This document shows, one piece after another, positions 4,468 to 47,257 of a DNA stretch of 64,000 nucleotides. The notes below the pieces were generated by a model, which worked only from the letters and a program-made list of their open reading frames with translations, had not been told where the DNA came from and did no database searches. Location: positions 10,755-74,754 of the forward strand of contig CAZLSZ010000001.1 of NCBI GenBank assembly GCA_964562445.1, read 5' to 3'. The first letter of the stretch is position 1. Each line of letters opens with the position of its first letter. The position numbers were made by a program, and so were the translations under genes. The stretch comes from an uncultured Gammaproteobacteria bacterium (GTDB lineage: Bacteria; Patescibacteriota; Microgenomatia; Levybacterales; UBA12049).

Positions 4468-4469
4468 TT

Positions 4470-4754
4470 ATGAGTAGAAGTAGTAAAAAAGGACCATATA
4501 TTGATGAGAAATTACTGAAAAAGGTAATGACTCAAAAACAAAATAATAAACATGATGGAATCAAAACATGGGCGCGTGCCAGTCAGATTCCTCCGGAATT
4601 TGTCGGACATACATTGATGATCCATAACGGAAAGCATTTTATTTCCGTATTGATTAATGAAAGTATGGTCGGACACAGACTTGGTGAATTCTCACCGACA
4701 CGAACATTTAGAGGGCATGGTAAGGTTGTGGCACGTGAGGTAAGTAAGACATAA
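4470..4754 (+). CDS. rpsS: 30S ribosomal protein S19
   Basis: [18 protein letters not shown]...HNGKHFISV...[19 protein letters not shown]. Confidence 0.95.
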
Positions 4755-4755
4755 T

Positions 4756-5226: not shown

Positions 5227-5883
5227 ATGGGACAGAAAGTAAATCCACATGTTATCAGACTTGGGGCAGTACATACATGGAATAGTCGCTGGTTTGATGA
5301 GAAGTCATACAAAACAGTGTTGCTTGAAGATTATGGTCTTCGAAAGATGTTGATGACTAGGCTGCGCTCGGCAGGTGTGGCAAAAGTGGAGATTGAAAGG
5401 TCCATTAATAGTCTCAAAATTATTATTCATGTTTCTCGTCCGGGTATCGTGATCGGACGGGGAGGATCAGGACTTGAAGAATTGAAGAAAGCGATTACGG
5501 CATTTTTTGCAAAAATCCGCGGGGGAAAGCAATTGCCAAAGATTGATATCCGAGTTGAGCCGATTAAAGAACCGAATCTCAATGCGTATCTTGTTGCAAA
5601 TAATGTGGCAGATCAGTTGGTACGCAGGCTGCCGTTTAAGAGAATTCTCAATTCAACAGCAGAACGTGTTATGGGCTCGGGCGCATTGGGTGTGAAGATT
5701 CTGCTTACCGGACGTATCGGAGGAGCGGAAATAGGCAGACGTGAGAAGATTCATATTGGGACAGTACCATTGTCAACAATCCGGGAAGATATCAGTTATG
5801 CACAGTTCCCTGCATTGACCAAAAAGGGATATATCGGCGTAAAAGTATGGATCAATAGACCTGAGGGAGGAGACACAGTTTAG
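5227..5883 (+). CDS. rpsC: 30S ribosomal protein S3
   Basis: KH and S3-C domains: [12 protein letters not shown]..., [19 protein letters not shown]. Confidence 0.95.
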
Positions 5884-5884
5884 T

Positions 5885-6295
5885 ATGTTAATGCCGAAGC
5901 GACAAAAGTATCGAAAGCAGATGCGTCTCAATATGAAAGGCGTCGCGAGTCGCGGGACGAAATTATCGTTTGGGGACTATGGTCTGCAGACGATGAGTAC
6001 CGGTTGGATCAGCGCGAGACAGATTGAATCGGCGAGACGCGCGATCAGTAATTATACACAGCGAGGCGGAAGAACATGGATTTGTATTTTCCCAGATAAG
6101 CCGATTACCAAGAAACCGGCTGAGGTGAGAATGGGTGGCGGAAAAGGAGATATTCAGGAATATGTAGCTCCTGTCAAGCCGGGACGCATTATGTTTGAGA
6201 TGACCGGTGTTTCTGAGGAAGTTGCACGGGAGGCATTACGTCTAGCATCACATAAATTGCCGGTAAAAACAAGAATCTTGGTAAAAGGACAATAA
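5885..6295 (+). CDS. rplP: 50S ribosomal protein L16
   Basis: [14 protein letters not shown]...[25 protein letters not shown]. Confidence 0.95.
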
Positions 6296-7541: not shown

Positions 7542-8105
7542 ATGAATGTAAAAGTACAAGATAATATACAGGAAAATATAAAGGAAAATCTCGCGAAGAG
7601 CTTGGGAATTAAAAATCCTATGGCACTTCCCCGTTTGACAAAAATTGTCATTAATATGGGAGTCAAAGATGCCGTGAATGATAAAAAGTTTGTCGAGAAA
7701 ATGGGCGGAGCGCTCGCGCAGATTACCGGACAGAAGGCAAAAACAACGCGCGCAAAGAAGGCTATCGCGGGATTTAAGATCCGTCAGGGAGATGTGATCG
7801 GACTGGTTGTCACGCTTCGCGGTAAGAGAATGTATGCATTCTATGACCGATTGGTGAAGATCGTGCTTCCGCGTATTAAGGATTTCAGAGGTGTTCCGCG
7901 AAAGAGTTTTGACGGACGGGGAAATTACACACTCGGATTTCATGAGTATTCAACCTTCCCCGAGATTGATCCGGCAAGTGTCGACAAACTACAGGGAATG
8001 GAGATGGTTTTTGTCACGACGGCAAAAGACAACAAAGAAGGAATTGCATTGATCGAAACACTTGGTATGCCTTTTGCGAAGGAGGAAAAGAAGCAAGGCG
8101 AGTAA
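7542..8105 (+). CDS. rplE: 50S ribosomal protein L5
   Basis: Start at ATG 7542, just after the rplX stop. LPRLTKIVINMGVKDAV..., RGKRMYAFYDRLVKIVLPRIKDFRG. Confidence 0.93.
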   Translation: MNVKVQDNIQENIKENLAKSLGIKNPMALPRLTKIVINMGVKDAVNDKKFVEKMGGALAQITGQKAKTTRAKKAIAGFKIRQGDVIGLVVTLRGKRMYAFYDRLVKIVLPRIKDFRGVPRKSFDGRGNYTLGFHEYSTFPEIDPASVDKLQGMEMVFVTTAKDNKEGIALIETLGMPFAKEEKKQGE

Positions 8106-8139
8106 TGTGATATAATCACAAGGCTAAAAAGAATATAGT

Positions 8140-8325
8140 ATGGCTAAAACATCAGACATAGTAAAATATAATAAAAAATTGAAATATCCCGGTCGGGTAG
8201 TTAATATCTGTGGGATTTGCGGTCGATCAAAAGGCTATATGAGAAGATTCGGGCTTTGCAGAATTTGTTTTAGAGAACGAGCAATGAAAGGAGATTTGCC
8301 TGGCGTATTAAAGGCCAGTTGGTAA
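8140..8325 (+). CDS. rpsN: 30S ribosomal protein S14 type Z (zinc-binding, 61 aa)
   Basis: [23 protein letters not shown], the four-Cys type-Z signature. Confidence 0.93.
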
Positions 8326-8329
8326 ACAT

Positions 8330-8719
8330 ATGAATTACGTTATAGGAGATTTTGTTATTCAATTAAAAAATGCGTCATTGGCACGCAAGAAAACTGTGGT
8401 TGCGCCGTACGCAAATCTGAGTAAAGCAGTCGCGAAGGTGCTGAAAAAAGAAGGATTTTTGGAAGATGTGAAAGAAGATGTCGTTGACGGGCACAAAGTG
8501 CTCCAAGTCGCGCTCAGATATTCACGACGCAAGCCGGTGATTACGGATGTCGACTTGGTTTCTAAACCGTCGCTTCGTACCTACGTCAATGTTTCCGAGA
8601 TTGCATCCAAGCAGGGACGGGCAACAACAGTGATTCTTTCAACCAATACTGGCGTTCTGACAGGAAAGGAGGCAATAAAAAAAGGAGTAGGAGGAGAACT
8701 TCTTTTTAAGATTTGGTAG
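8330..8719 (+). CDS. rpsH: 30S ribosomal protein S8
   Basis: IGDFVIQLKNASLARKKTV...ILSTNTGVLTGKEA. Confidence 0.93.
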   Translation: MNYVIGDFVIQLKNASLARKKTVVAPYANLSKAVAKVLKKEGFLEDVKEDVVDGHKVLQVALRYSRRKPVITDVDLVSKPSLRTYVNVSEIASKQGRATTVILSTNTGVLTGKEAIKKGVGGELLFKIW

Positions 8720-8750
8720 TTCTGCAAGGCAGAATTATGAGGAGGAATAT

Positions 8751-9302
8751 ATGTCGAAGATCGGGAAATTGCCTATCACAGTCGGAAACGGAGTTACACT
8801 TGCGGTTGATGGTACAAAAGTCACCGTGACGGGACCGAAAGGGAATGCATCTCTGGATCTTCCTGAAGGAATCGGTATCGAGCAATCCGAAGGAAAAGTG
8901 ACTGTCACAGCACAAAACAAAGAGGATCGACAAGTACGTGCGATGTATGGTTTGACTCGGGCAAATCTTGCCAATCTTATCAAAGGTGTTGATAGTGGTT
9001 TTGAAAAAAGACTCGAGATTGTCGGCGTCGGGTACAAAGCACAAATGCAGGGAACTGACTTGTCTCTTTCTCTCGGTTTTTCACATCCGGTGAAATTTAA
9101 ACCATTGCCGGGTGTTACGCTCGCTGTCGTTGATAACGGTATCAATATCTCAGGAAGTGATAAAGTCGCTGTCGGGGAAATGGCTGCAAAAATCAGAGCG
9201 GCAAAACCGCCGGAACCATACAAAGGCAAAGGCATCAAATATAAAGGAGAACAGATTAAGAGAAAGGCAGGGAAAGCTGCAAAAGCGGCAGGCGCGAAGT
9301 AG
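8751..9302 (+). CDS. rplF: 50S ribosomal protein L6
   Basis: MSKIGKLPITVGNGVT...GPKGNASL...VGVGYKAQMQG, two uL6 repeats. Confidence 0.93.
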   Translation: MSKIGKLPITVGNGVTLAVDGTKVTVTGPKGNASLDLPEGIGIEQSEGKVTVTAQNKEDRQVRAMYGLTRANLANLIKGVDSGFEKRLEIVGVGYKAQMQGTDLSLSLGFSHPVKFKPLPGVTLAVVDNGINISGSDKVAVGEMAAKIRAAKPPEPYKGKGIKYKGEQIKRKAGKAAKAAGAK

Positions 9303-9325
9303 TGCTTTGGCAATAGGATTAACAT

Positions 9326-9676
9326 ATGGATAATACAAGAACAACAGCAAAAAGACAAAGACAAATACGGGGACGAAAGAAAATTTCAAACGTCAGTGAT
9401 CGTATGCGATTGAGTGTGTACCGCTCAAATAGTTATATGTACGCGCAGATCATTGATCATAATGGTGACACGCTTGTCGGTGTTTCTGAAAAGTCATTGA
9501 GCATCGGAAGTAAAGGTACACCTGTGGAAAGAGCAAAACAGGTAGGTGTTGCTATCGCGAAAGCCGCGAAAGAGAAAAAAATTAATGATGTCGTTTTTGA
9601 TAAAGGCAGTTTCGCGTATCACGGACGCGTGAAAGCTGTCGCTGAAGGAGCCCGTGAAGGAGGATTAAATGTATGA
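9326..9676 (+). CDS. rplR: 50S ribosomal protein L18
   Basis: RMRLSVYRSNSYMYAQIIDHNGDTLVGVSE...AYHGRVKAVAEGAREGGL. Confidence 0.93.
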   Translation: MDNTRTTAKRQRQIRGRKKISNVSDRMRLSVYRSNSYMYAQIIDHNGDTLVGVSEKSLSIGSKGTPVERAKQVGVAIAKAAKEKKINDVVFDKGSFAYHGRVKAVAEGAREGGLNV

Positions 9677-10197
9677 GCAGAAATTTCGGTAATCCGGCAC
9701 ATATGAATCAGGCACAAAGTGAATTTGAAGAACAGGTGGTACAGATCAATCGTGTTTCTAAAAAGACTAAAGGTGGAAACAAGGTGGGTTTTTCCGCTCT
9801 TACTGTTGTGGGAGACGGCAATGGTCGTGTAGGAGTAGCCTTAGGGAAAGCGCCTGACGTTTCTAGCGCGATCCGAAAAGGTATCAATCAGGCAAAAAAA
9901 AATTTGATTACAATTCCTCTGGTTGACGGCACTATTCCTTTCCGAATTGATATCAAAGTCGGCGCCGCCAAGATCATGTTGAAGCCCGCGCCTCCGGGAT
10001 CAGGTATTATCGCGGGCGGTGCTGTACGCAGTGTCGTTTCCGTCGCCGGTATCAAGAATATCTCTTCCAAAATGCTTGGGACCACCAATAAAATCAGTAA
10101 TATTTACGCGACACTTGAGGCGCTTCGCAAAGTTAGTGAATTAGCTGACCGCAAAAAAGAACGATTGAGTGATGTGAAAGCAGGAAAGACCAAATAA
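9673..10197 (+). CDS. rpsE: 30S ribosomal protein S5
   Basis: INRVSKKTKGGNKVGFSALTVVGDGNGRVGVALGKA...GSGIIAGGAVR. The next gene is rplO directly; there is no L30 gene. Confidence 0.95.
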   Translation: MSRNFGNPAHMNQAQSEFEEQVVQINRVSKKTKGGNKVGFSALTVVGDGNGRVGVALGKAPDVSSAIRKGINQAKKNLITIPLVDGTIPFRIDIKVGAAKIMLKPAPPGSGIIAGGAVRSVVSVAGIKNISSKMLGTTNKISNIYATLEALRKVSELADRKKERLSDVKAGKTK

Positions 10198-10199
10198 GT

Positions 10200-10643
10200 A
10201 TGAATTTACATAATTTAGAGAAAATTAAAGCAAAAAGCAAAAAAAGAGTCGGTCTCGGACATGGATCAGGCCGCGGTAAGACTGCTGGACGCGGGCAAAA
10301 AGGACAAAAAGCGAGAAATTCCGTACCACTTCGATTTGAGGGTGGAGCACTGCCTCTTACCAAACGACTGCCGTTTCTCAGAGGAAAAGGCAGAAATAAA
10401 TCTTTGCAGGAGAAACCGGTTGTTATCAATGTTGAAGCATTGAATGTTTTTGCAAAAGGTGCCACAATAAATGAAGAAAGTCTCGTCAAACAGGGTTTAG
10501 CGACCAAGGAATTAATCGACAGAAAAGGCGTAAAAATTTTGGGACGGGGCAATATGACAGTCGCATTGACCGTACAGCTTCCTGTTTCCAAAGGTGCTGA
10601 AGAGAAGATTACCAAGGCAGGCGGCAACGTAACTAAGAACTAA
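10200..10643 (+). CDS. rplO: 50S ribosomal protein L15
   Basis: MNLHNLEKIKAKSKKRVGLGHGSGRGKTAGRGQKGQKARN. Confidence 0.93.
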   Translation: MNLHNLEKIKAKSKKRVGLGHGSGRGKTAGRGQKGQKARNSVPLRFEGGALPLTKRLPFLRGKGRNKSLQEKPVVINVEALNVFAKGATINEESLVKQGLATKELIDRKGVKILGRGNMTVALTVQLPVSKGAEEKITKAGGNVTKN

Positions 10644-10690
10644 AAAGTGGGAACTAAGAATCTTTTCAGTGTGGCAATACAATAACGTTC

Positions 10691-11983
10691 ATGAACGCAA
10701 TTTTTCAAACTCTGATTAATAGCTATAAATCGCCTGAGGTCCGGAAGAAAATCCTCTTTATCCTCATGATCTTTCTCGTATTCAGACTCTTTGCGCACAT
10801 TCCCGTTGCCGGCGTAAAAATTGATCAACTCAAGCTCCTCTTTGAACAGAATCAATTTTTGGGATTTTTAAATATGTTCTCCGGGGGCTCGCTTTCGAAT
10901 TTTTCTATCATGGCTCTGGGGCTAAATCCGTATATTAATGCTTCAATTATATTGCAGTTACTTACGATGTTATTTCCCAAACTTGAAGCATTATCCAAAG
11001 AAGGAGAATCAGGCCGCAGAAAAATTAATCAGTATACAAGGTTTCTCACTGTGCCACTAGCAGTCTTGCAGGCAATCGGTGTTTTCGCTCTCCTTCGCAG
11101 TCAGGGGCTGGTCACCAGTCTCGCACCCGTAGATTTTCTTGCGTTTATTTTTACACTGGTTGCAGGATCAATGCTCTTGGTATGGCTTGGAGAACTCATA
11201 ACAGAAAAAGGTATAGGAAATGGTATCTCGCTTCTTATTTTCGGAGGTATTGTCGGACAGCTGCCGACCATGATGGGGCAGACATTTTCTACAGCGACTA
11301 CACAGTCCTCATTGGGTTTGATAAGTTTTGCTGTTTTAAGTCTGGGTGTTATCGTAGGTATTATTATTGTGAATGAAGCGACAAGAAGGATTCCTGTGCA
11401 TTACGCGAAACGTATGCGTGGCAGCAAAATGTATGGCGGACAATCCACACATCTGCCCTTGCGCCTTAATCAGGCAGGTGTTATTCCGATTATTTTTGCT
11501 GTTTCTATCGTCCTTCTTCCTTCTCTTCTGGCAAGTGTTTTTGGCACATCAAAAAATCCTGCACTCAGAACCATCGCTGAAAACATCAATATTTGGTTTT
11601 CTCCTAATGGTTTTTGGTATAACGCCTTATATTTCCTACTTGTAGTTGGATTCACTTTCTTTTATACTGCTGTAGTGTTCAATCCGAAAAAAATTTCGGA
11701 GGATATACAAAAATATGGTGGCTTTATCCCAGGGGTGCGACCAGGCAAGCCTACCACAACATATCTGAATTATATCTTGACGAGAATTACACTCGTCGGT
11801 GCTGTTTTTTTGGGTTTAGTAGCAATATTACCGCAAATTGCCCGTCAAATTACAGGCGTTCAGAATTTACTTTTAGGTGGAGTAAGTATGTTGATTGTGG
11901 TGAGTGTTGTTTTGGAAACATATAAAGCAATCGAGGCGCATTTGGTAATGAGAAACTATGAGGGGTTTCTCGACAGAAAATAA
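10691..11983 (+). CDS. secY: preprotein translocase subunit SecY
   Basis: 430 aa, about 10 TM segments. [47 protein letters not shown]. Confidence 0.95.
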
Positions 11984-19462: not shown

Positions 19463-20428
19463 CTATTTGAGGTCGATGATGGTGATTTCTTGTCTTTCAA
19501 TTTCTTTACTTTTTGCAAACCCTTCTTTTATGGCATCGCGAAATGCCTCCATGCTTTGATATCTTTCTTCAGGTTTGAATGCCAGAGCAGTATGGACAAC
19601 TTCTTCAATCGGCTCCAGATTTTTTGCCATATTGTCTTTTAATGAATCCTCAAATAACGGTGGTTTAGCCGTTAGATGCGCCATAGCGCTTGCAGCGCGT
19701 GTTATTCTGTTATAAGGATTTCTTCCCGTAAAAAGTTCATACCCTACTACTCCCAGCGAATAAATATCTCCTTCAGGCACGCTTATTATTTCTTCTTCGC
19801 TTCCCACTCGTTCATGAGGGACATATGCAGGCGTACCGTACGGGTCGTATTCATAATATGTTTTTTCACCTTTTTTTAGCTTTACGGCCATTCCCCAGTC
19901 GATAACTTTTATATTGGGTACTCCATTTTCTTCATGAAACAAAATATTATCGGGTTTGATATCCCGATGCAGAACGCCTTGCTGATGAGCGTATTCTATA
20001 CCTGCGGCAGTTTGCGCGAGAATGTGTACTCCGCAGTGAATACTTGCGCGTCCTTCGCGTTTTAATCTTTCTTTTACAGATTTTCCGTCAGCAAACCGCA
20101 TGGCGATATACGGATATTCTGCTTCACGATCATATTCAAATAAGTGAATAATGTGGCTATGGATAAGTTTTTGATGTATGAGGGCTTCATTATCAGCCTC
20201 CTGTAGAGGGTATTCGTTTTTAAATACTTTGAGCGCGACAGTATTTCCCGTGGTGGTATCAGTTCCTTTATAGACTTCGGCTGTCCCGCCTCTGCCGATC
20301 TTTTTCCCCAGGATAAATTTTTCATTGAATGTCCTGCCCGGAATTAATTCTTTCTTTTGCATAAAAAAGGGATTATAGTAGAGATTACCCCATTTTGCAA
20401 GGGATTGAGGGGTAAATATGATTGTCAT
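19463..20428 (-). CDS. Hanks-type serine/threonine protein kinase (soluble, kinase domain only)
   Basis: GRGGTAEVYKG...ALKVF (G-loop and VAIK-like), HRDIKPDNIL (catalytic loop), DWGMA (DFG variant), GTPAYVPHE. Confidence 0.9.
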   Translation of the reverse strand: MTIIFTPQSLAKWGNLYYNPFFMQKKELIPGRTFNEKFILGKKIGRGGTAEVYKGTDTTTGNTVALKVFKNEYPLQEADNEALIHQKLIHSHIIHLFEYDREAEYPYIAMRFADGKSVKERLKREGRASIHCGVHILAQTAAGIEYAHQQGVLHRDIKPDNILFHEENGVPNIKVIDWGMAVKLKKGEKTYYEYDPYGTPAYVPHERVGSEEEIISVPEGDIYSLGVVGYELFTGRNPYNRITRAASAMAHLTAKPPLFEDSLKDNMAKNLEPIEEVVHTALAFKPEERYQSMEAFRDAIKEGFAKSKEIERQEITIIDLK

Positions 20429-20502: not shown

Positions 20503-21717
20503 TTAGCGGGAGGAGTGTTTGAGTGATTCGGCGGCGATACTCACGGATATTCCCAGTGCCATACCCAGAAGGATACCGATCAGCCCTGCGGAGAATTTTC
20601 CTCCTTCTTTTAATGTCGCCAGTATTTTTTCCCGTCGCTCTTTTCCTTCAGGAGTAGAGGCATCAAATTCGGGAAGCATATCCAGGAGGGAATTAAAGTC
20701 TCCTTTGGCGACCCCTTCTATTACGTCACGCGCTTTGCCGCTATCCAAATCCCCCTCCTGCGCTCTTTTGAAGTATTCATCCATCGGATCTTCTCCTTTT
20801 TCTCGTGCTTCTTCCATCATTTTGTCCATTTGATTTACCATGCCGAGTTCTTTTTCTGCCTGTTCCAGCCGGCGTTTTGCGATCTCGTCATCGGGGAATT
20901 TGGTAAGTATATCTTTTTGTTGGGTTATTTCAGCTCTGAGTGATGCCGCTTGTTTTTCAATTCCTGCCGGACCTACTCCCAGCACATCCATCATCGCGTG
21001 AAAGTCATCTTTGTCCAGAATCGTCTTGCCGTCAATCGCCTGCAATGCTTTGTCAGCATCTTCCCGATCAGGGTGCCCTTCCGGAACGGTTTTATCGATA
21101 ATAGCTCGCATATCTCCTGCGGTGAGCATACCTTTCTCGCGTGCAATCTTTTCTATCTGCGTACTCATCTCATCGGTCATCTCCGGTGTTTCCATACTGG
21201 GATCAATCGTATCCAGATATGTCTTTACAAATTCCCGCTCCTCTCCGGTAAATCCTGCTTCTATGGCTTGTCTTTCCGACACAAGATTCATTCCCATAAG
21301 TTCACTTGGTGGGATAGTCATATCATATCTTGCAGCATCATCGCGGCCTCCTTCTCCTTGTTTGATTACTTTGCATGTGTAATTCCCTTTATCATCGATC
21401 CCTGTTATCTGGTCGACGTAAACATCATACGTCTCTCCTGTGGTACTGTCTTCATAGGTTGTTGCCAGCGGATTACCTTTGTCAGTGCCTTCTGTCGTAG
21501 GGAATGCAAGGGGGCCATTGGCAAAGTATTCTTGTTTGGGTTCATAAAGCTGTTTTGAACCTCGTATCTTGGTTCCTGATTCGTCATTCTCTTGAGATTT
21601 TTTGTTAAAGACACTACTTGCTACCAGTCCTATTTCTTTTGATCGGCGAGCTTGCTGCTCGGGAGATACTTCGCTTTCTGTTCGGGGTGGTGCTGTCTGC
21701 TCTGCTGCTTCTGTCAT
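20503..21717 (-). CDS. hypothetical acidic protein with C-terminal transmembrane anchor (tail-anchored), co-directional upstream of the STK
   Basis: 404 aa, D/E-rich, with coiled-coil-like middle. C-terminus GGKFSAGLIGILLGMALGISVSIAAESL is hydrophobic. No recognisable catalytic motif. Confidence 0.6.
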   Translation of the reverse strand: MTEAAEQTAPPRTESEVSPEQQARRSKEIGLVASSVFNKKSQENDESGTKIRGSKQLYEPKQEYFANGPLAFPTTEGTDKGNPLATTYEDSTTGETYDVYVDQITGIDDKGNYTCKVIKQGEGGRDDAARYDMTIPPSELMGMNLVSERQAIEAGFTGEEREFVKTYLDTIDPSMETPEMTDEMSTQIEKIAREKGMLTAGDMRAIIDKTVPEGHPDREDADKALQAIDGKTILDKDDFHAMMDVLGVGPAGIEKQAASLRAEITQQKDILTKFPDDEIAKRRLEQAEKELGMVNQMDKMMEEAREKGEDPMDEYFKRAQEGDLDSGKARDVIEGVAKGDFNSLLDMLPEFDASTPEGKERREKILATLKEGGKFSAGLIGILLGMALGISVSIAAESLKHSSR

Positions 21718-21761
21718 ATTCTTAATATAGTTGAATAATCCCTATAAATCAACTAACATGA

Positions 21762-24356
21762 ATGTATATGGCTAATATAGAGCAGATTTTGCCTGTAGTA
21801 AAAGAAAAGGCGAAAGATACAGGAAAACAAGGCGCGGCTAAAGTAAAACACTTTTTCGGTCGGGGAAATAATGTGTCTCCTCAAGAACAACCTCAAAAGC
21901 CGGCATATGCCACTCCGGAATTTAAGAAAAATTTTTTTGTAGATAGGGGCGTGACAACGGAAGCTGCGGTAAAAGGCAGAAGGAGAGAAACCAACGAACG
22001 ATCAGAATGGGTACAATTTTCTGAAAAGACGAGAGAAGGGTTTACGACGTTTTTGGATAATTATGCCACAAATCTCCATGATATCATGCAGCAGCCTGGT
22101 GGCGCGGATATTCTCAAGTCACAAGAGCATAGTAAACATATCTATAAGCTTCTTTCAGAAGGAGTGTCATTTGATGGGACCAAGCAGGATGATACCAAAC
22201 TCAAGGAGAATATCAAAAAAATGCTTGATAAACCATCCGGCTGGGTGCTTACCAAAGAACTTATGGAACAAGAAACAGCCCTCGGTCTTATGGCTTTGGG
22301 GTTGGTAACAAGCGAGGATATGGGGAAAAGTGGTAAGTTGAGAGCAGTAGGAGAATATCTCGGGCTTGTTGATAAAAAAACTGATTTTAATAATGACCCT
22401 GGCTCAGTTATGCATCGTAATATAGGCAAAGGTACCGGAGGGAGTATAGGTGCAGTAGTCGGTGGTGGTGTTGGAAATATATTATCACGTGGGAATGCTG
22501 ATTTCTGGTTCAATATTGGGGATACTATGGCAAATATCCCTCATGGAAGTGTTGCGATGTCAACATATATTGGTGCAGGGGTTGGGGCGGTCTTAGGAAG
22601 TAGTTTGGCAGAGGGACGGAGGAATAAGCAAGATGCAGGGATGAGAGGGGAGTTTGCTTCTCATGAAAGTGCTGTTCTTCCCGGCGAATTGAAAGATTAT
22701 CTGAAAAAAGTTTGGAAAGTAGATGTTGATGGTTTGAAGAGTAGCGAGGCTGATGTGCGGGATGTTATGGGGACGTTGGCAAAGAATCTTAAAACGCGGG
22801 AATCGTATTTTGATGATCTTGGAATACCCAAAGATGTGCGGGATATGTCTCCGGAGAGTAAATTAATTGGAGGACGTTCTGTTGCACGGAGTGGGGAGAA
22901 GATTACACAAAAAATAATGGCAGTTTATAAAGAGAAAGGTGGAAGCACTCCGGAACAATATATGGAGGCGAGAAAGGCAGTGCTAGGAAAAATAACACAG
23001 GAGATGATTGAAGGAATAGAAAGTAAACCAAAGGAACGCCCGCTAGCAACTATTGATCAGAAAATAAAAGACAGACAGGAAGGCGGAAAATTATATGAGT
23101 TAAAGAAAAATAGTGCTGCAACAATAGAATCTATTTCAGAAGCGGGTAAGAATATATCCTCTGTAACAGAGGAAATGGCAACTTTTCAAAATGTTAAAGA
23201 TCTAACTGCTCAAAAAAAACAACTCGAAGACGATTTAAATAATTTATATACTCATATAACACCTCAAGATAGGAAAGATGAAATACAAAAAGAGCTATTT
23301 GGTACAGGAGGACTTCAGGAGAAAAAGCGTGATACTGCCGATAAAAGAGCCGAAGCAATTGATGCAATTCGTAATAGACATCCTATAAAAGATGGGGAAA
23401 CGGCTGCTGATTATTGGAAAAAAGTTGGTCCTTCAATTGACGCGACTGAGGAAATTTATAATGAACAAATTAAGGAAGTGGAAGAAAAAATAAATAAGTT
23501 ACTTCAAGAGAAAGCACAAATTAATGAGTTTGAAGAACGAATAAAGGATATCGGAGATCAGCTCAAAGGATATTCTAATCTTATAGCAAGTTATCAGAGT
23601 GATCTTACGTCAATACAGCCGCTTTTTAGTCCTGGTGTGTTAGAAGATAGGACAATAGATCCAGCTACGCATTTGAAAACGATTAATAGTAAAGCTTCCA
23701 CGGGCGGATGGACAAAAGATGAAAATGACGAAAATAGATTGAGGCTTTTGAAAGCAATTGCAGTAGCAAGAGCAAGTTCGTCAGGAACTATTGACAATAA
23801 TTTGCTCGAAATAGAAATGAGTACACTATTATCGCAAGAAAAGAAGAAGAAAGCTGGTTTAGAACAGAGGTTAGGAACAGTAAATTATGAAAAGGAGATT
23901 AATGATCTTACCATAACAAAAACACTTATTTCTCCAGAAACACAAGCAAAGGTATTTGGGAAGGCAGGAGAAATTTCAAAACAAATAGATAAATATGTTG
24001 ATAAAGATATTGTAGACCCGAAAGATACTATATCAAAAACAGAAAAAGCCCTAAAGGGAGAGAAAGGATATTATGAAATATTAGATTTACTTTTTGAATA
24101 TAGAAAACGACCGGATAGAGAAGAATATTTTTCTCAAATAAGCAAAGTGGTTACTCAAGATGAGGTACTTAAAGCACTGCAAGAGCTAGCTGAACTAGCA
24201 GATATAGATTTAAGTACATTATCTAACCCTAATAAGTTGGCAGATGTTATGGACCAGATAAAAGCAAATAAAGGAAAAGTTACAAGTAAACATATTAGAG
24301 GTATGTTTATTCGCTTAATGGATAATAGTCAAAATCGAGCCTTGGCGATGAGCTAA
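21762..24356 (+). CDS. large hypothetical protein (864 aa): glycine-zipper segment plus long coiled-coil region
   Basis: GKGTGGSIGAVVGGGVGNILSRG...YIGAGVGAVLGSSLAEG (GxxxG-rich). The remainder is K/E-rich heptad-like sequence. Start could be ATG 21768. Confidence 0.6.
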   Translation: MYMANIEQILPVVKEKAKDTGKQGAAKVKHFFGRGNNVSPQEQPQKPAYATPEFKKNFFVDRGVTTEAAVKGRRRETNERSEWVQFSEKTREGFTTFLDNYATNLHDIMQQPGGADILKSQEHSKHIYKLLSEGVSFDGTKQDDTKLKENIKKMLDKPSGWVLTKELMEQETALGLMALGLVTSEDMGKSGKLRAVGEYLGLVDKKTDFNNDPGSVMHRNIGKGTGGSIGAVVGGGVGNILSRGNADFWFNIGDTMANIPHGSVAMSTYIGAGVGAVLGSSLAEGRRNKQDAGMRGEFASHESAVLPGELKDYLKKVWKVDVDGLKSSEADVRDVMGTLAKNLKTRESYFDDLGIPKDVRDMSPESKLIGGRSVARSGEKITQKIMAVYKEKGGSTPEQYMEARKAVLGKITQEMIEGIESKPKERPLATIDQKIKDRQEGGKLYELKKNSAATIESISEAGKNISSVTEEMATFQNVKDLTAQKKQLEDDLNNLYTHITPQDRKDEIQKELFGTGGLQEKKRDTADKRAEAIDAIRNRHPIKDGETAADYWKKVGPSIDATEEIYNEQIKEVEEKINKLLQEKAQINEFEERIKDIGDQLKGYSNLIASYQSDLTSIQPLFSPGVLEDRTIDPATHLKTINSKASTGGWTKDENDENRLRLLKAIAVARASSSGTIDNNLLEIEMSTLLSQEKKKKAGLEQRLGTVNYEKEINDLTITKTLISPETQAKVFGKAGEISKQIDKYVDKDIVDPKDTISKTEKALKGEKGYYEILDLLFEYRKRPDREEYFSQISKVVTQDEVLKALQELAELADIDLSTLSNPNKLADVMDQIKANKGKVTSKHIRGMFIRLMDNSQNRALAMS

Positions 24357-24377
24357 GATTATCGCTACAATAAAAGT

Positions 24378-24722
24378 ATGAATACAGCAAAGGATGTAAT
24401 CAAATTATTACCGTTTAGCGAAACGTTCAAGAACGAACTGCTCGCTAAGTACGACCTGATGGATGAGGATCAGCAGGTGGCTGTACTGCGGGCGGTGTGG
24501 GATCTGTATGATGCCCTTTATGAAGTCACGCTTGATGAAAATCTCAAAGCGGCTGAACAGCGTGCGCTCAAGGACGAAGAAAAACTCGACGAAGACTTCT
24601 ATATGCGGGTACGCAAACAAACTGATCAGGACTTCCAAAAGTTTGTCAGTGAGTCCTCAGCAAACAGTGATCTTTCCACAGCACGGGAAGAATTACAGAA
24701 GATTCTTACACAATCCTCATAA
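24378..24722 (+). CDS. hypothetical small acidic protein (114 aa)
   Basis: ORF with strong coding character. No known motif. Confidence 0.5.
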   Translation: MNTAKDVIKLLPFSETFKNELLAKYDLMDEDQQVAVLRAVWDLYDALYEVTLDENLKAAEQRALKDEEKLDEDFYMRVRKQTDQDFQKFVSESSANSDLSTAREELQKILTQSS

Positions 24723-24733
24723 ACCCCATAGTA

Positions 24734-24762
24734 TTGACTTTTTGCCTTCTTTTTACTATACT
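24734..24762 (+). promoter_or_regulatory. sigma70-like promoter TTGACT-17-TATACT, 13 nt upstream of the LysM-protein ATG
   Basis: -35 at 24734-39, -10 at 24757-62, ATG at 24776. No SD. Confidence 0.45.
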
Positions 24763-24775
24763 CTGAATCGTTTTT

Positions 24776-26947
24776 ATGGTAGAGAAAATATCATTATCAG
24801 AAATAGCTCGCAAGAAAATACGCCGTAGTGCAGCCACAGTTGGCGCGGCAGGTGTTGTCGCGATTCCGATGGCTGCAGTTCCTTCTGCAGCTCATGCCGA
24901 ATCCCCTGCAAATGGTTCCCCTGCGCATGTTCAGGTCGTCAAGGATGTCCGGACCGGAGGAGTAGATTTCGATGCCAAGAGAATACACCTTACCGGTGTT
25001 AAGCCTTCATATTGTGTCATCCCGGAGCCTCGGCAGGAGCCTGAAAAGCCTGAGAAAATAGATGAAAAATTATTTGATGTATATACCGTAAAAAAAGGTG
25101 ATACCCTTTCTGAAATTGCAGCGGACTCTCTCAAACAAAAAGAAGGACAGCAATTTGACTGGAAAAAAACACAAGAGGATTTTATGCTTACCGCCGCAGC
25201 ATCCGGTATCGCAAATCCGGATCTTATTTATCCCGGACAAAAGATACACATCCCGGGTAAAGAACTCCGACAGACAGTGCGTGATGCTCAGCAAGGGAAT
25301 GGGAAGAAAGAAGTAGTGGATACTGTAAAGGCGCTTACACAGGAGATCACGCATCGTGGATACCACAAGGCGGACAATGAAGCTCTGAATGTGCTTACCG
25401 CAGTTTCGGAAATCCAACAGCAAAATCCCCCGAAAGAGCCCACAGGATTAGCTGCCGATAAGAGTTTATTGGAAATAGCGACTGAATTAAATATTGCTCC
25501 CATTAATATTTCTACTCCTTTTCGATCGGATGTTGTTGAATCTCAAACGAAAATCGCTCTTGCCAATCAATGTATCGTAGGGACAGAAGCAAAATCACAA
25601 ACCACTATACGTGAACAATTGACAAGAAAAGGTGACACCAAATCAGATACTTATCTACGCGCGCGCATGGCAGAGGCAGCAACTAGCTATGATATCTCTA
25701 AGTATAATCATAACTCTAGGGATATACAGATGCAAAAAGGGGAGAAGTTCAATAAACTGTCCGGCGGTGTAGAATCAGTGTTGCAAGGAATTTCCTCCAT
25801 GAGTTTGCGGGATATGATGGATCTGAAATCATTGCGGGATCAGAAAAAGTTTCCAGATGATGTGTATACAGAGGTGGCTACATTATGGGCAGTAGCCGCG
25901 AGTAAAGATATTGGAATGATACTTAGTGAGAATGATCATCATACATTACGTAATGCAGCATATGGGCATCTCGTCGAAGCCTTGAGTCGTAATGATCGCC
26001 GTCAAGAACCTGATGATACCAAGAAACTCATTACTCTGCTCAATAAGGCAAAAACCCCCGAAGAGCGCGCTCAATTGATGCTTGATCATCCGAATGCGCT
26101 CAAACACTTCTTCCGTGATGATGCGCAAGGAGCAGTTCCACCTCTCAATCCTCCTGCGGTTGATATCTCACCGAAAGATCCCCCTAAAGATGAAGGGAAT
26201 GCCTTATTAGCTTATGGGAAAGAGCATGCTGGGTGGATTGCAGGAGCATTGGGGCTCCTTGCGCTAGGAGCGGTAGGTGTTAAAAAGAGAAAGGAAATAA
26301 AAGAAAAATTAATGCATAAAAAATATAAAGATGAGAAAGTGCAAGAAAGCTTAGCTTTGCGTAAAGCTGAGAAAAAGCACCTTACGGATGATGAAATTAG
26401 GGAGCAAATAAGATTAATTTATCCAAAAACAATGACGTGGAAGCAAGAAAGTAAACTAAGATTAAATACTAATAAAGGAAGACTGGATGTCCTTCCGAAT
26501 GAAACAAGTGTGGGGATGGATGAAGCTTCATTTAGAAAGTTTTTGGAATTTGTAAAGGAAAATCCTGATTCGGTTTATTGTAAAGCAGCACTCGACGAAT
26601 ATGAATCGCATAAAAAGGCTGGTACTGAAGATAAATATGCGTTTGTTGCAAGCGCGAGAACACGTCTTGCTACGAATCTGGAAGATGTGAAGTTAAGCAT
26701 AGAGGATAGAGATGTAACCAAGAGACCTCTTGGATATGTAAGCTTTGAGTGGAGACTTGTCGAAGTTATTGATCCAGCATCATTACCACCTCAACCACCT
26801 GCTCCTAAACGAAAGCCACGCAGAACACCTACTAGTCCGGAACCACAAGGTGGTACAACTCCGCCCGTTACTCCTGAACCGCAGGGTGGAGCTACACCAC
26901 CTGCACAGCCTGAGCCCAAGGGGGGGACGAAACCTCCTGAAAAGTAA
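24776..26947 (+). CDS. LysM domain-containing membrane/secreted protein (723 aa) with Pro-rich C-terminal tail
   Basis: N-terminal signal-like RRSAATVGAAGVVAIPMAAVPSAAHA. LysM: YTVKKGDTLSEIAADSL...IYPGQKIHIP. TM helix GWIAGALGLLALGAVGV then KKRKE. Tail PEPQGGTTPPVTPEPQGGATPPAQPEPKGG. Confidence 0.7.
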   Translation: MVEKISLSEIARKKIRRSAATVGAAGVVAIPMAAVPSAAHAESPANGSPAHVQVVKDVRTGGVDFDAKRIHLTGVKPSYCVIPEPRQEPEKPEKIDEKLFDVYTVKKGDTLSEIAADSLKQKEGQQFDWKKTQEDFMLTAAASGIANPDLIYPGQKIHIPGKELRQTVRDAQQGNGKKEVVDTVKALTQEITHRGYHKADNEALNVLTAVSEIQQQNPPKEPTGLAADKSLLEIATELNIAPINISTPFRSDVVESQTKIALANQCIVGTEAKSQTTIREQLTRKGDTKSDTYLRARMAEAATSYDISKYNHNSRDIQMQKGEKFNKLSGGVESVLQGISSMSLRDMMDLKSLRDQKKFPDDVYTEVATLWAVAASKDIGMILSENDHHTLRNAAYGHLVEALSRNDRRQEPDDTKKLITLLNKAKTPEERAQLMLDHPNALKHFFRDDAQGAVPPLNPPAVDISPKDPPKDEGNALLAYGKEHAGWIAGALGLLALGAVGVKKRKEIKEKLMHKKYKDEKVQESLALRKAEKKHLTDDEIREQIRLIYPKTMTWKQESKLRLNTNKGRLDVLPNETSVGMDEASFRKFLEFVKENPDSVYCKAALDEYESHKKAGTEDKYAFVASARTRLATNLEDVKLSIEDRDVTKRPLGYVSFEWRLVEVIDPASLPPQPPAPKRKPRRTPTSPEPQGGTTPPVTPEPQGGATPPAQPEPKGGTKPPEK

Positions 26948-27159
26948 AAACAGATCCTACAGATCCTGCCTCTATCCCATCAGTAGGAGGTGGACAGGAA
27001 GATGGAAATAATCGAACGCTAATAATATCGCAGAATGTTAATTTTATCAACATTCCTTTCGGTACATATCCTTCTTTACCCTATCCCCAACAAAAGGAAG
27101 ATAGTAAGGGAGGAGAAAAAGTTCCTCATCAGGTTTCCGGAGTTGCAGTATCCGTCGAT

Positions 27160-29562
27160 GTGGAAGGTGGAGAGCAAAAAGGCAATGCCCTCAAAAATGT
27201 AAAAGAGGGAGAAGATAATGATTATGGAAAAATGAGAGGTAAAATCAGTAGTTTAATAGACAAAGGTGCGAATATAGTTAATAGTATTAAAGATAAATTG
27301 AGTAGAGGTGAAGAAGATAGTGGAAATGTAGGAGGGGTAAAAAATAATAAAGAATCTTCCGTTACACCGAAAGCTGTTGAAGAGGTCTCTCCTCAATTTG
27401 AAGAATTTAATGCAGAGCATAGGGTAGATGAAGAGAAGAATGCGATAGAAGTCAGATCATATGGAGAATCAAATATAGGGGGCAGAGCACGAAATGAAGA
27501 TGCACATGGAACAAAGGGTAAAATCAGCTTTGCTGAGATTGGTGCAAATGGAACGTCAGATTCTGAAAAATATCAAATAATGGCAGAAATGCTGAATAAT
27601 GTAAAATTTGTAAATCCAAAAACGGGTGAAGAAGAATCATTTCAAACTTCAGGGGAATCAATAAAACAATTAGAAGAAAATCTGGGTAGTTATTTAGCGG
27701 AAGGTAAGCTAGGTAGTATTGATTTTGTAGCAGATGGAGCCGGCGGAGAAGGTAATGGTGAAGAAGCTAGTAGTATCGCTGGATTAGGTTTTTCTTATGC
27801 AATTGCTGAGGCAGTATCTCAAGGCGAAGACATTACACAAGATACAGTTCGTGAAGCTGTCATGTACGCACATAATTTAATCGTAGGGTATAACCTCCAA
27901 GATGATAAAAAGAAAGGAGCTTCCACATTTATTGCTTCAGTGACCAATAGTAAGGGGCAAACATATGTCGCTTCAGTAGGTGATTCTCGTGTCTATAAGC
28001 AAGATAGTGAAGGAAATGTTGTTCGAATCACAGAAGATCAGAGTCCTATGGAAGGTTGGGTTCAAAACGAGAGGAAGCAAATAAAAGTTGAAAAAAGAAA
28101 AGAAAATAGAGAATTTCAGTATCATGAATCCTTTACTGATATAGATAAAATTTGGGTTTCAAAACAGCTGGGTGGACGTGTTACAGAAGAATTAAGGGAA
28201 TCAGATATTCAAATATATGGAATGACTGTGGATAACCAAGAAAAATTGTTTTTAGTCTGCGATGGTGTTTGGGAAGGTATAAATCTCGCAGATAAAAATG
28301 TAAATGATGTATTACAAGAAGCCAGTAGAAAATACAAAACAAGCTTAGAACTTAAGGTATCTCCATTATTAGCAAAAAATTTTGCGGATGGGTTTGTGTT
28401 TAAAGAGGTAAATTTAAAAGGGACAGAGGGTATGTCGGCTGAAGAGTTATCCAAACATTTAACACGGCGAGAAGTTGGGGATTGGAGTAGGGATAATGTA
28501 ACAGCTGTGGTGGTAGAGAAAAGTAATAAAGTAATTCAAGAAAACGCGGATGATAAAGATAAAGAAGTAGTCTTTGACGAAATGCACTCTTCAGTATCAA
28601 TTGATGATGATGTAGAGAAAGATAATAATGGCAGTAAAATAAATGGAATAGAAAATTTAACAAAAACAAATGAGTATAAGGGCTGCAGACTTACATGGGA
28701 TAGACCTGAAGATACTGCATTAATGCCATATCATATGAAAGATATGGATGGTGAGTCTGTTCCTTATGTAAGAGCTGAAAGAATTTATAGGGAACTAGAA
28801 AAGTCTCAAATTGTTAATGAAGGTTCTACCCAAATATTATTAGGTTTTGGGTCTCAAGATCGTATACTAGAAATGGATAGATTTTCTTATAGACCTACAG
28901 CTTCTCTCTACTCAATATTTAGTGGATTCGGATGGCAATCTTCTGTCTCTGACTACGCTAAACAAGATTTTGAGTCATTTGTAAGGATGAGTTTGAGAGG
29001 TGGGAGTTCATCTGTTCAGGAAGCGCTTAGTGATTCTTTTACTGGAATGCATGAATATATGCGAAGTCTTAGGAAAATAAATAAGGAATCAGGCAGTTCA
29101 GCTCTTGTAGCATTTGTTACTAATAAAAAATTATATATCGCAAATGCAGGAGATTCTCGTGCAGTTATAGGTTCAGAAGGAAAGGCGATACGATTATCTA
29201 AAGATCATACACCAGATGATCCTGAAGAAAGACAAAGAATTGAATCAACAGGCAAGAAAGTTACTAAAACAGCAGGAGATATATATCGTGTTAATGATGT
29301 ATTGCCTGTATCGAGAGCATTAGGCTATTATGAAGCAGAAGTTAGCCCAGAACCGACCATAAAGACATACGAATTGGAAGGGAAAAAGGAAAGACTAATT
29401 CTTGCATCAAAAACATTATGGAATGTGATGAGTGATCAAGATGCTTTGGATTTAATTAAAGACACCTCTGATAGTAAAAAAGCATCAGAAGTATTGGCTC
29501 AAAAAGCAAAAGAATTGGGGAGTAAAGGAGATATCTCTGTAATCGTGGTAGATTTTAAATAA
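27160..29562 (+). CDS. tandem PP2C-family (PPM) Ser/Thr phosphatase, 800 aa; second domain degenerate at metal-binding Asp positions
   Basis: Domain 1: GGRARNEDAHG, FVADGAGGEG, ASVGDSRVY, LVCDGVWEG, DNVTAVVVE. Domain 2: LVAFVTNKKLYIANAGDSRAV, LSKDHTPDDPEERQRIE, VSRALGYYE, but SKTLWN replaces DGLWD and no DGHGG is present. The track start is a GTG; the frame is open a further 219 nt upstream with no start codon. Confidence 0.8.
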   Translation: MEGGEQKGNALKNVKEGEDNDYGKMRGKISSLIDKGANIVNSIKDKLSRGEEDSGNVGGVKNNKESSVTPKAVEEVSPQFEEFNAEHRVDEEKNAIEVRSYGESNIGGRARNEDAHGTKGKISFAEIGANGTSDSEKYQIMAEMLNNVKFVNPKTGEEESFQTSGESIKQLEENLGSYLAEGKLGSIDFVADGAGGEGNGEEASSIAGLGFSYAIAEAVSQGEDITQDTVREAVMYAHNLIVGYNLQDDKKKGASTFIASVTNSKGQTYVASVGDSRVYKQDSEGNVVRITEDQSPMEGWVQNERKQIKVEKRKENREFQYHESFTDIDKIWVSKQLGGRVTEELRESDIQIYGMTVDNQEKLFLVCDGVWEGINLADKNVNDVLQEASRKYKTSLELKVSPLLAKNFADGFVFKEVNLKGTEGMSAEELSKHLTRREVGDWSRDNVTAVVVEKSNKVIQENADDKDKEVVFDEMHSSVSIDDDVEKDNNGSKINGIENLTKTNEYKGCRLTWDRPEDTALMPYHMKDMDGESVPYVRAERIYRELEKSQIVNEGSTQILLGFGSQDRILEMDRFSYRPTASLYSIFSGFGWQSSVSDYAKQDFESFVRMSLRGGSSSVQEALSDSFTGMHEYMRSLRKINKESGSSALVAFVTNKKLYIANAGDSRAVIGSEGKAIRLSKDHTPDDPEERQRIESTGKKVTKTAGDIYRVNDVLPVSRALGYYEAEVSPEPTIKTYELEGKKERLILASKTLWNVMSDQDALDLIKDTSDSKKASEVLAQKAKELGSKGDISVIVVDFK

Positions 29563-29618: not shown

Positions 29619-29647
29619 TTGATTTCTCCTGTGAACGGGTGTATAAT
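29619..29647 (+). promoter_or_regulatory. sigma70-like promoter TTGATT-17-(TG)TATAAT, 8 nt upstream of the ATG (leaderless)
   Basis: -35 at 29619-24, -10 at 29642-47 preceded by TG, ATG at 29656. Confidence 0.5.
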
Positions 29648-45811: not shown

Positions 45812-45982
45812 GATCTGGTAAAAGAAGTTGCATCAGAGCTATGTGTACGGTATAATAACGATAGCATTAGAAGTACGATTATCTCAAAAAAGAGAAAAGC
45901 GTTATGGAGAAAATAGAACACACCTTCATATTGTATATATAAATTTTACGCTGCTCAAAACGCTGCTTTTGCTAAAAATAGT

Positions 45983-47257
45983 ATGTCAGATATAACACAA
46001 CAAGACTTAATTACACTTGAGAAAAAACTCATCGAACGTCAGGAAAAATTGGACGCGAAAGCTGATACATTGGAGAGTAAAGAAGAAGAAGTTGCTAAAA
46101 AACGGGAAGATTATCTCAAAAAATTGGAATCAGTTTCCGGTCTTACTCGTGAAGAAGCGAAGACACAGCTTCTTGCAGAGACTGAGCGTGATGCCGCGGG
46201 GATGATGGCAAAAATTATTAAAGATAAAGAAGCGGAAGCAAAGCGTACTGCAGATATAAAAGCCCAAGAAATCCTTGTTGATAGCCTTAACCACGGAGCA
46301 TTAAAATTTGTGCCGGAATATACAGTTTCAGTTGTGAAAGTAGAAGATGAGGAGATGAAAGGAAGAATTATCGGGAAAGAAGGTAGAAATATCCGCGCTT
46401 TTGAACAGGCAACAGGTGTTGACGTCGATTTGGATGAAGAAGGTGCTATCAAACTTTCCTGCTTTGATCAGATTCGTCGTGAAGTTGCCCGCAGAGCTCT
46501 TGAAAAATTACTCAAAGATACCCGTGTGCAGCCATTTCGAATTGAGGAGATAGTAAAACAAACTCGTGAAGAGCTGGAAAAAATAATGTATCAGGAAGGA
46601 GAAAAGCTTGCAAATGAAGTAAGTATTTTCAGTCTTCCTGATGATTTATATCCTATTTTGGGAAGAATGAAATTTAGAACTTCCTACGGCCAGAATTTAC
46701 TGGTACATACATTGGAAGGGACAAAGATAGGTGTGCATATTGCTCAAGAACTCGGTGCAAATGTTGATGTGGTTCGTCTGGGCTATCTTTTCCATGATGT
46801 CGGTAAGGTACTTGAAGGAGACGGCAGTCATGTCAAGCTCGGCGTGGAATTACTTCGAAAATATAATTTCCCCGAAAAAGTAATTGATGTCGTCGCGGAA
46901 CATCATGAAGACAAGCCGTTTTCGAGTGTTGAATCAGTCATCGTGCATGCGGCTGACGCGTCATCAGCTTCCCGTCCGGGCGCTCGGTATGAAGATATTG
47001 AGAAGTATGGCAAAAGGCTTACGGAAATGGAACAAATCGCGAAGAAATATGAAGGCGTCGAAGACGCATACGCATTTGAAGCAGGAAGAGAATTACGTGT
47101 TATCATCAACCCCGGCAAACTGGATGACTCACAGACAGTACTCCTATCACGAAAAATTCAGGAGGAAGTCAGCAGATCACTTGCAGTTCCGGGTGAAGTG
47201 AAAGTGACAGCAATTCGTGAGTTCCGATCTGTTTATCCCGAGACGACCGTTTCATAA
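45983..47257 (+). CDS. rny: ribonuclease Y (KH + HD domains; no N-terminal TM helix in this ORF)
   Basis: KH: GRIIGKEGRNIRAFEQATGVDV. HD: LLVHTLEGTKIGVHIA...GYLFHDVGK...AEHHED...IVHAADASSASRPGAR. In the recA-rny arrangement. Confidence 0.88.
   Translation: MSDITQQDLITLEKKLIERQEKLDAKADTLESKEEEVAKKREDYLKKLESVSGLTREEAKTQLLAETERDAAGMMAKIIKDKEAEAKRTADIKAQEILVDSLNHGALKFVPEYTVSVVKVEDEEMKGRIIGKEGRNIRAFEQATGVDVDLDEEGAIKLSCFDQIRREVARRALEKLLKDTRVQPFRIEEIVKQTREELEKIMYQEGEKLANEVSIFSLPDDLYPILGRMKFRTSYGQNLLVHTLEGTKIGVHIAQELGANVDVVRLGYLFHDVGKVLEGDGSHVKLGVELLRKYNFPEKVIDVVAEHHEDKPFSSVESVIVHAADASSASRPGARYEDIEKYGKRLTEMEQIAKKYEGVEDAYAFEAGRELRVIINPGKLDDSQTVLLSRKIQEEVSRSLAVPGEVKVTAIREFRSVYPETTVS

Follow-up and report, generated by a model that had tools for sequence, protein, structure and literature searches.

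Two adjacent forward-strand open reading frames (ORFs) of an uncultured bacterium, one for a LysM membrane protein and the other for a protein with two PP2C domains, are the subject of this analysis. Both lie in the window, the whole 64,000-nucleotide stretch of contig CAZLSZ010000001.1 (positions 10,755 to 74,754), whose coordinates are used throughout unless a relative is named. Between the end of the LysM ORF and the annotated start of the PP2C ORF runs a 219-nt stretch that contains neither a stop codon nor a canonical start codon. This stretch is not intergenic; it belongs to the coding interior of one long membrane-protein gene. From sequence comparison, we read the LysM and PP2C ORFs as the two parts of what was ancestrally a single gene of about 1,595 aa, predicted to encode a single-pass receptor-type phosphatase. 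As to how the gene came to be broken, a genuine, recent, lineage-specific deletion of one nucleotide has, in our judgment, close to an even chance of being the explanation.

Coding signal across the LysM–PP2C junction

The upstream ORF (24776–26947, plus strand, 723 aa) occupies the frame whose codons begin at positions congruent to 2 modulo 3, and it terminates with ...AAA CCT CCT GAA AAG TAA, where the TAA is at 26945–47. The PP2C frame (positions congruent to 1 modulo 3) has a TGA at 26938–40 and is then open from 26941 to its stop at 29560–62. A sequence-only reading of this DNA had reported that the PP2C frame opens at 26941, 4 nt ahead of the LysM TAA, and that no ATG, GTG or TTG precedes the GTG at 27160; the coordinates are reproduced here, and the start-codon claim holds over all 73 codons of 26941–27159. 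At the junction, TGAAAAGTAA (26938–26947, plus strand), the AAAG at 26941–44 is the sole 4 nt open in both frames. Because the TGA at 26938–40 and the TAA at 26945–47 bracket this AAAG, a change of frame is confined to positions 26941–26944. The 73-codon leader translates as KVKTDPTDPASIPSVGGGQEDGNNRTLIISQNVNFINIPFGTYPSLPYPQQKEDSKGGEKVPHQVSGVAVSVD, and its near-cognate start codons are, in full, ATC 26974, ATA 27022 and 27025, ATC 27046 and ATT 27052.

A run of this length without a stop had been assigned a probability near 0.01, and shuffling of the stretch agrees, leaving 0.72% of shuffles stop-free in frame. Of the window's 66 ORFs with 150 aa or more, none has a longer start-less leader than these 73 codons, the runners-up having 39, 38 and 30. 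We scored coding character with a codon log-odds model trained on the other long ORFs of the window. In the PP2C frame, the 219-nt stretch (26941–27159, plus strand) scores +22.2, where true in-frame 219-nt windows have a median of 21.2; off-frame windows average about −48, and the four of them that are stop-free score between −5 and −21. Stop-free shuffles of the stretch have a mean score of −2.6 (standard deviation 6.4), and 0 of 2,000 reach +22.2. A scan of the window for start-less leaders of at least 18 codons, within open frames of at least 60 codons, also places this one at the top with 22.2, the next two scoring 9.2 and 8.7. Its base composition by codon position is gene-like, with G-rich first positions and third positions that are 76% A+T. 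In sliding windows, position 26941 is exactly where the positive frame changes over from that of LysM to that of PP2C, and the coding signal runs on across the junction in the new frame without a start codon or initiation signals.

Expression signals are arranged as for one gene. The sole good promoter match upstream of the whole LysM–PP2C unit is TTGACT-17-TATACT (24734–24762, plus strand), 13 nt before the LysM ATG, and a second promoter-like site, TTGATT-17-TATAAT (29619–29647, plus strand), stands 8 nt before the ATG at 29656 and marks the end of the transcription unit. No promoter-like site was found near GTG 27160 or the next candidate start, ATG 27232, no terminator-like site on the plus strand between the two ORFs, and neither start codon has a Shine-Dalgarno (SD) sequence or a −10 box upstream at a workable spacing. 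The SD-like strings inside the leader (26985–90 and 27108–15) have no PP2C-frame start codon at a usable spacing, and Rfam and tRNA scans returned nothing near the junction. The absence of a promoter, terminator, SD sequence or canonical start between the halves favors a single gene.

A continuous relative and the architecture of the joined protein

An exhaustive HMMER search with the conceptual fusion as its query returned a protein of 44% identity (P0017) and thereby led to a 31-kb Logan contig (SRR30542699, hereafter L003); over 10.9 kb, a contig from a second run (SRR30542700, L004) matches L003 at 100% identity. Synteny between L003 and the window covers about 20.5 to 40.7 kb of the latter, and the proteins shared between them are 91% (MetK), 88% (a 341-aa protein), 82% (114 aa), 80% (158 aa) and 75% (402 aa) identical. 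In L003, the homolog of the junction is spanned by one uninterrupted ORF, the gene at 7799–9919 (706 aa). Its residues 1–203 correspond to residues 513–714 of the LysM protein (63% identity), and its residues 194–244 correspond to residues 5–51 of the leader (E=5e-7), the alignment pairing TDPAHIPP..IIIPPVINFISV..SPYPHH with TDPASIPSV..LIISQNVNFINIP..LPYPQQ. The leader homolog is followed by more linker, which can be aligned to the beginning of the PP2C protein as annotated, and then by a classical PP2C domain that shares 42% identity with the second PP2C domain of the window protein. At the position homologous to the junction, the L003 DNA reads CCA GAT CCC ACA GTT GAT; the frame is kept and there is no A-run.

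The proposal that a −1 change near GAAAAGTAA joins the LysM and PP2C genes is thus borne out twice, by the switch of codon frame at 26941 and by the continuous L003 ORF. Orthologs had been named as the place to look for a single ORF, and L003 7799–9919 does run without interruption from the LysM-protein homolog into PP2C; a two-gene arrangement with a canonical start and a stop-containing spacer, named in advance as the contrary outcome, was not found. Joining the halves at AAG|GTA yields a product of 1,595 aa, close to the ~1590-aa LysM–tandem-PP2C fusion that had been estimated. The predicted peptide across the change of frame is ...KPPEK-VKTDPTDPASIPSVGGGQEDGNNR. Directly after the break there is a perfect 9-nt tandem duplication, ACAGATCCT twice (26950–26967, plus strand), which encodes TDP-TDP in phase with the PP2C frame; the L003 relative has one TDP copy.

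From its N-terminus, the joined protein has a signal peptide, a LysM domain, a transmembrane (TM) helix, a cytoplasmic domain, a linker, a PP2C_2 domain and a degenerate PP2C domain. Within the upstream ORF, which ends PPEK-TAA, the two hydropathy peaks are the signal peptide (aa 1–41) and the TM helix (aa 484–502; nt 26225–26281), the latter followed by KKRKE. The LysM domain occupies aa 103–160 (nt 25082–25255; PF01476, E=7e-9, 35.9 bits against a cut-off of 20.9), and analogy suggests that the ectodomain would sense peptidoglycan or chitin-type glycans. The best-conserved part of the gene is a juxtamembrane cytoplasmic domain of about 170 aa (26285–26797, plus strand), with 73% amino acid identity to L003/L004 and 75% nucleotide identity to L003 7772–8284. 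It has no match in Pfam and no sequence match in the PDB, and its single-sequence structure model has a predicted local distance difference test score of 48.5, below the quality needed for a fold search. A Pro/Gly/Thr-rich disordered tail with three 12-aa repeats resembling PEPQGGTTPPVT (26798–26944, plus strand) completes the upstream half, where it is a linker dangling at a truncated C-terminus. In the joined protein, this tail belongs to a disordered Pro/Gly/Thr/Asp-rich linker of ~400 aa (fusion aa ~675–890), which contains the break.

The downstream ORF, annotated as 800 aa from the GTG (27160–29562, plus strand), encodes the rest of the linker and the two PP2C domains, with profile matches to PF00481 (E=7e-54) and PF13672 (E=3e-10). 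By motif comparison, the PP2C_2 domain (nt 27454–28518) has intact RNED, DGAGG, GDSR, CDGVWE and DNVT motifs. In the classical domain (nt 28654–29559) the same kind of comparison, which is of motifs only, finds SGFG, KTLWN and GDIS against DGHG, DGLWD and DDIS in L003. Judged by the residues that we take to be the PP2C metal ligands, this second domain is probably a pseudo-phosphatase, since its metal-binding motifs are lost while the ORF stays open and codon-biased. The PP2C_2 subfamily is frequently found at the C-terminus of long proteins, such as P0019 (1,556 aa) and P0023 (2,406 aa).

The gene is also interrupted in L003, at another place. An in-frame TAG at L003 7583–85 (L004 475–477) is the sole separator between an ectodomain ORF (L003 6176–7585, 26% identical to aa 1–466 of the LysM protein) and the TM/cytoplasmic/PP2C ORF that follows in the same frame. 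The 53 open, start-less codons after the TAG still encode the TM helix, and the TAG is identical in the contigs of the two sequencing runs. Consequently, the window and L003 lineages each carry one lesion, different in the two, in a disordered linker of the same gene, and the downstream ORF is intact in both. Stop usage also differs, with TGA, TAA and TAG ending 0, 11 and 8 of 19 genes in L003 and TGA ending 13 of 57 ORFs in the window. We also rejected an alternative genetic code, since code 11 gives full-length housekeeping genes and L003 commonly ends its genes with TAG (8 of 19).

The two loci differ in their domain arrangement as well. L003 has the PP2C_2 domain as a gene apart, farther downstream (10001–11197) and with its own −10 box, whereas in the window it precedes the classical PP2C domain within one ORF; therefore, the domain order has been reshuffled between the two lineages. 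Upstream of its interrupted gene, L003 carries a 633-aa paralog (L3_633, 4208–6109) that ends directly after the cytoplasmic domain, without the Pro-rich tail; the window has a single copy.

Origin of the frame break

A one-nucleotide deletion would account for the junction as follows. The ancestral sequence ...CCT GAA AAA GTA AAA ACA... would read PEKVKT, and one base would have been lost in the A-run of what is now GAAAAG (26941–44). The upstream half would then stop at the TAA at 26945, and the downstream half would run on in the −1 frame, its first 73 codons, without a start, being the 219-nt stretch. The downstream half may be untranslated, or it may be made only by a small fraction of ribosomes that slip by −1 on A_AAG when the TAA enters the A site.

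Several considerations point to this account. The 50.8 kb of ORFs in the window contain 1,132 homopolymer runs of at least 4 nt, 474 of at least 5 nt and 60 of at least 7 nt, with a single frame break overall, and end-to-end matches to Pfam domain models were obtained for SecY, RpoA, RecA, MetK, RecX, TsaD and a 970-aa helicase-nuclease; with so many runs, one break and full-length conserved genes, the assembly gives no impression of being error-prone in homopolymers. Since all 873 downstream codons are open and the PP2C_2 motifs are intact, the lesion would be young. Finally, genuine lesions appear to occur in this gene, because the L003/L004 TAG is reproduced in two sequencing runs. A G7 run slightly upstream (26920–26926, plus strand; codons AAG GGG GGG) was examined as an alternative site and rejected: it cannot be the shift site because it lies upstream of the TGA of the PP2C frame, and as an indel site its correction to G6 or G8 meets a stop, either that TGA (26938) or, in the third frame, a TAA near 27009.

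Several observations weigh against a recent deletion. A consensus error could also have produced the break, which we regard as unlikely and nonetheless credible. Only one orthologous lineage is available for comparison, and the LysM protein is otherwise an orphan in our searches. The two stops are tightly spaced: when we simulated 1-nt deletions, the region open in both frames had a median of 70 nt and was 4 nt or shorter in only 1–2% of cases, so that the geometry better fits a shifty-stop slip site. A fully intact downstream ORF would also be expected if the gene were whole and the break an error, or if the downstream half were translated by frameshifting.

In the case of an assembly or consensus error, the true ORF would be intact, with 1,596 codons and GAAAAAG at the junction, and one A would have been lost in assembly or polishing. 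The downstream ORF is intact and the sequence coding-like up to the break, the ortholog is continuous and the break falls in a homopolymer, all as an error would have it; the contig comes from an uncultured organism, in which the LysM and PP2C proteins are singletons. The run is short, however (A4 or A5), and yet the 474 runs of at least 5 nt and 60 of at least 7 nt in ORFs carry no other break. The full-length conserved genes, and the genuine lesion that the relative has in the same gene, also speak against an error, which we therefore hold to be a minority prospect. If the break is an assembly error, the sole consequence is a corrected gene model.

A third account is −1 ribosomal frameshifting, in which the tRNA-Lys on AAG (26942–44) would slip to AAA (26941–43) with TAA, a slowly decoded codon, in the A site. 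The product would then be mostly the 723-aa LysM membrane protein, with a minor amount of full-length receptor phosphatase. A_AAG is the minimal bacterial −1 tetranucleotide (Z_ZZN), with B. subtilis cdd and IS1222 as known cases (PMC5009743). Here, it lies at 26941–44, where both frames are open, and −1 re-pairing is permitted. The only 4 nt able to host a shift are this AAAG, with a 0-frame stop directly 3′, an arrangement that arises by coincidence in 1–2% of random deletions. Moreover, the LysM ORF alone among 57 ORFs ends in A_AAG followed by a stop, and initiation signals belonging to the downstream ORF itself are lacking. Against this, neither the shift nor the motif is kept in the one lineage available: L003 reads straight through (CCA GAT CCC ACA GTT). 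The SD-like G-run lies 15 nt before the AAG codon in the P site, just outside the 10–14 nt optimum, and is also present in L003, which does not shift; SD-like stimulation has its optimum at 10–14 nt and is reportedly lost at 16 nt (bioRxiv 10.1101/2020.04.16.045807). The sequence 3′ of A_AAG folds no better than its shuffles (z = −0.52 and −0.63), and with no stem-loop or pseudoknot 5–9 nt in the 3′ direction and no SD-like element at 10–14 nt on the 5′ side, only the neighboring 0-frame stop is left as a candidate stimulator. Programmed frameshifting is rare in non-mobile cellular genes. A_AAG alone supports only low-level shifting (PMC5009743). In sum, frameshifting at this site is improbable; if ribosomes do use A_AAG|TAA, it would be a rare case of frameshift-dependent expression in a cell. 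Transcriptional slippage was considered separately and is implausible, the A-runs being merely 4–5 nt long.

The break may, more speculatively, be a recoding device, in which a slip at the shifty stop would set a small, possibly regulated full-length fraction beside an abundant truncated LysM protein, with the L003 TAG, which lies in the extracellular linker, as its readthrough analogue. We consider this quite doubtful; if it is true, translational recoding would repeatedly determine the output of a signaling gene in an uncultured bacterial lineage.

The ORFs could instead be two separate genes. PP2C translation would begin at a non-canonical start (ATC 26974, ATA 27022 or ATT 27052), by reinitiation, or at GTG 27160 or ATG 27232, and the leader would be the remnant of a completed fission. 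The stand-alone paralog L3_633, with an ectodomain, TM helix and cytoplasmic domain and no phosphatase, exists in L003; two distant PP2C_2 homologs (P0002 and P0003) begin just before the domain; and the public annotation has two gene models. However, homology to the relative begins with TDPAxIP at 26959, ahead of every near-cognate codon and preceded only by AAA GTA AAA ACA GAT CCT. This disfavors the non-canonical start that the sequence-only reading had offered as an alternative, the first near-cognate codon being the ATC at 26974. No candidate start has an SD sequence or −10 box in front of it, and the sequence from the break to GTG 27160 is still fully coding-like. The 723-aa product ends in a dangling linker, whereas L3_633 stops at a domain boundary. 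Two separate genes are accordingly a poor prospect, and GTG 27160 is almost certainly not the true N-terminus.

Initiation signals elsewhere in the window bear on what such a start would look like. Its genes have either a −10-like box only a few bases ahead of the ATG or, if inside an operon, a GGAGG at normal spacing. TATAAT-like boxes stand 6–12 nt before the ATG, with no SD sequence, at many starts (for example 29656, 45338, 57703, 60276 and 61410), and the operon-internal genes at 2578, 5227, 9673 and 13098 carry GGAGG; L003 shows the same pattern. The placement of TATAAT-like boxes just before ATG codons that lack an SD sequence suggests that leaderless mRNAs are widespread among the genes of the window.

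Last, an ordinary intergenic spacer that happens to be stop-free, as some 1% of random 73-codon runs are in a window with many frames, is refuted by the stop-free shuffles, none of which matches its codon score, by its gene-like first- and third-position base biases, and by its significant, colinear protein homology to the relative's ORF.

Genomic setting and comparison with known systems

Apart from the L003 lineage, no close homolog of the reconstructed protein was found in any collection searched. A word-index search with the PP2C ORF returned distant PP2C homologs only, none adjoining a LysM gene, and one with the LysM protein returned the query itself and one weak LysM-domain match. An alignment search with the cytoplasmic domain found nothing. 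Scans of genome contigs with the PP2C protein, and of genomes and metagenomes with the cytoplasmic domain, gave no relatives, two of these scans having used low-complexity K/E-rich patterns. Exact look-ups of the window's PP2C, LysM and 171-aa proteins gave no contig, and a look-up of the 114-aa protein gave a 1,076-bp fragment (L005, GCA_020049695.1) that is 99.9% identical to the window and covers 23688–24763 only, ending 2.2 kb short of the junction. A literature search on the accession numbers found nothing.

The window is part of a bacterial chromosome, with genes for SecY, RpoA, L17, S9, MetK, RecA, RecX, RNase Y and TsaD. Near the LysM–PP2C unit, at 19463–20428, is a Ser/Thr kinase gene. 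Beside it, the block 20503–24356 encodes two large proteins (404 and 864 aa, without Pfam domains) that are 37–38% identical to their counterparts in L003 1–3778, against 75–91% for the flanks; by this comparison, the block is evolving fast. Farther away, the RNase Y homolog (45917–47257) matches positions ~100–195 of the 201-position N-terminal Pfam model, and its 22-codon start-less leader is not coding-like, so that it may be naturally short at the N-terminus. An ORF at 54447–56408 with weak matches to HerA/TrwB-type ATPases (type IV secretion coupling proteins) adjoins the gene for the 970-aa helicase-nuclease (UvrD-helicase, PD-(D/E)XK).

The slip site can be compared with two kinds of known −1 frameshifting. 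With B. subtilis cdd (A_CGA_AAG, where shifting is incidental) and IS1222 (G_CGA_AAG, where it is productive), the junction shares the minimal tetranucleotide and a tRNA-Lys that re-pairs from AAG to AAA (PMC5009743). It differs from them in that its 5′ codon is GAA and not CGA, its SD-like element is off-optimum and the site is absent from the ortholog; for the junction, moreover, the comparison is one of sequence only. In Sulfolobus solfataricus, fucA1 is likewise a split cellular gene with two annotated ORFs and a −1 shift from which a full-length polypeptide is possible (PMC1616953). Its frameshift was shown experimentally, at 5–10% efficiency, and depends on a slippery heptamer (PMC1616953), whereas the LysM–PP2C junction has the tetranucleotide only and is known here from its sequence alone.

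Split genes and young pseudogenes of bacteria and of metagenome-assembled genomes offer a broader comparison. As in those, adjacent same-strand ORFs in different frames are colinear with a relative's single ORF, the downstream part has no start codon and the lesion sits in a homopolymer. The LysM–PP2C gene differs from them in the 4-nt overlap between the stops, the distinct lesion of the relative and the fully intact downstream ORF in both genomes. The finding is thus a frame-interrupted gene, a common and known kind of lesion, and its main practical yield is a corrected gene model: the public models (723 aa, and 800 aa from the GTG) are best treated as parts of one interrupted gene. Provided that the lesions are real, this would be a candidate case of a cell-envelope signaling gene that is recurrently inactivated or split.

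The reconstructed protein has its nearest parallels among single-pass proteins that couple an ectodomain to a cytoplasmic Ser/Thr signaling enzyme, among them membrane-anchored bacterial PP2C phosphatases like PstP of mycobacteria and LysM receptor kinases like CERK1 and NFR1 of plants. As points of difference, its juxtamembrane domain has no known relatives, the predicted output is a phosphatase, placed C-terminally after a linker of ~400 aa, and its PP2C domains come in tandem, the second probably without its metal ligands. Encoded near a Ser/Thr kinase, the joined LysM–PP2C protein would have an uncommon receptor-type phosphatase architecture.

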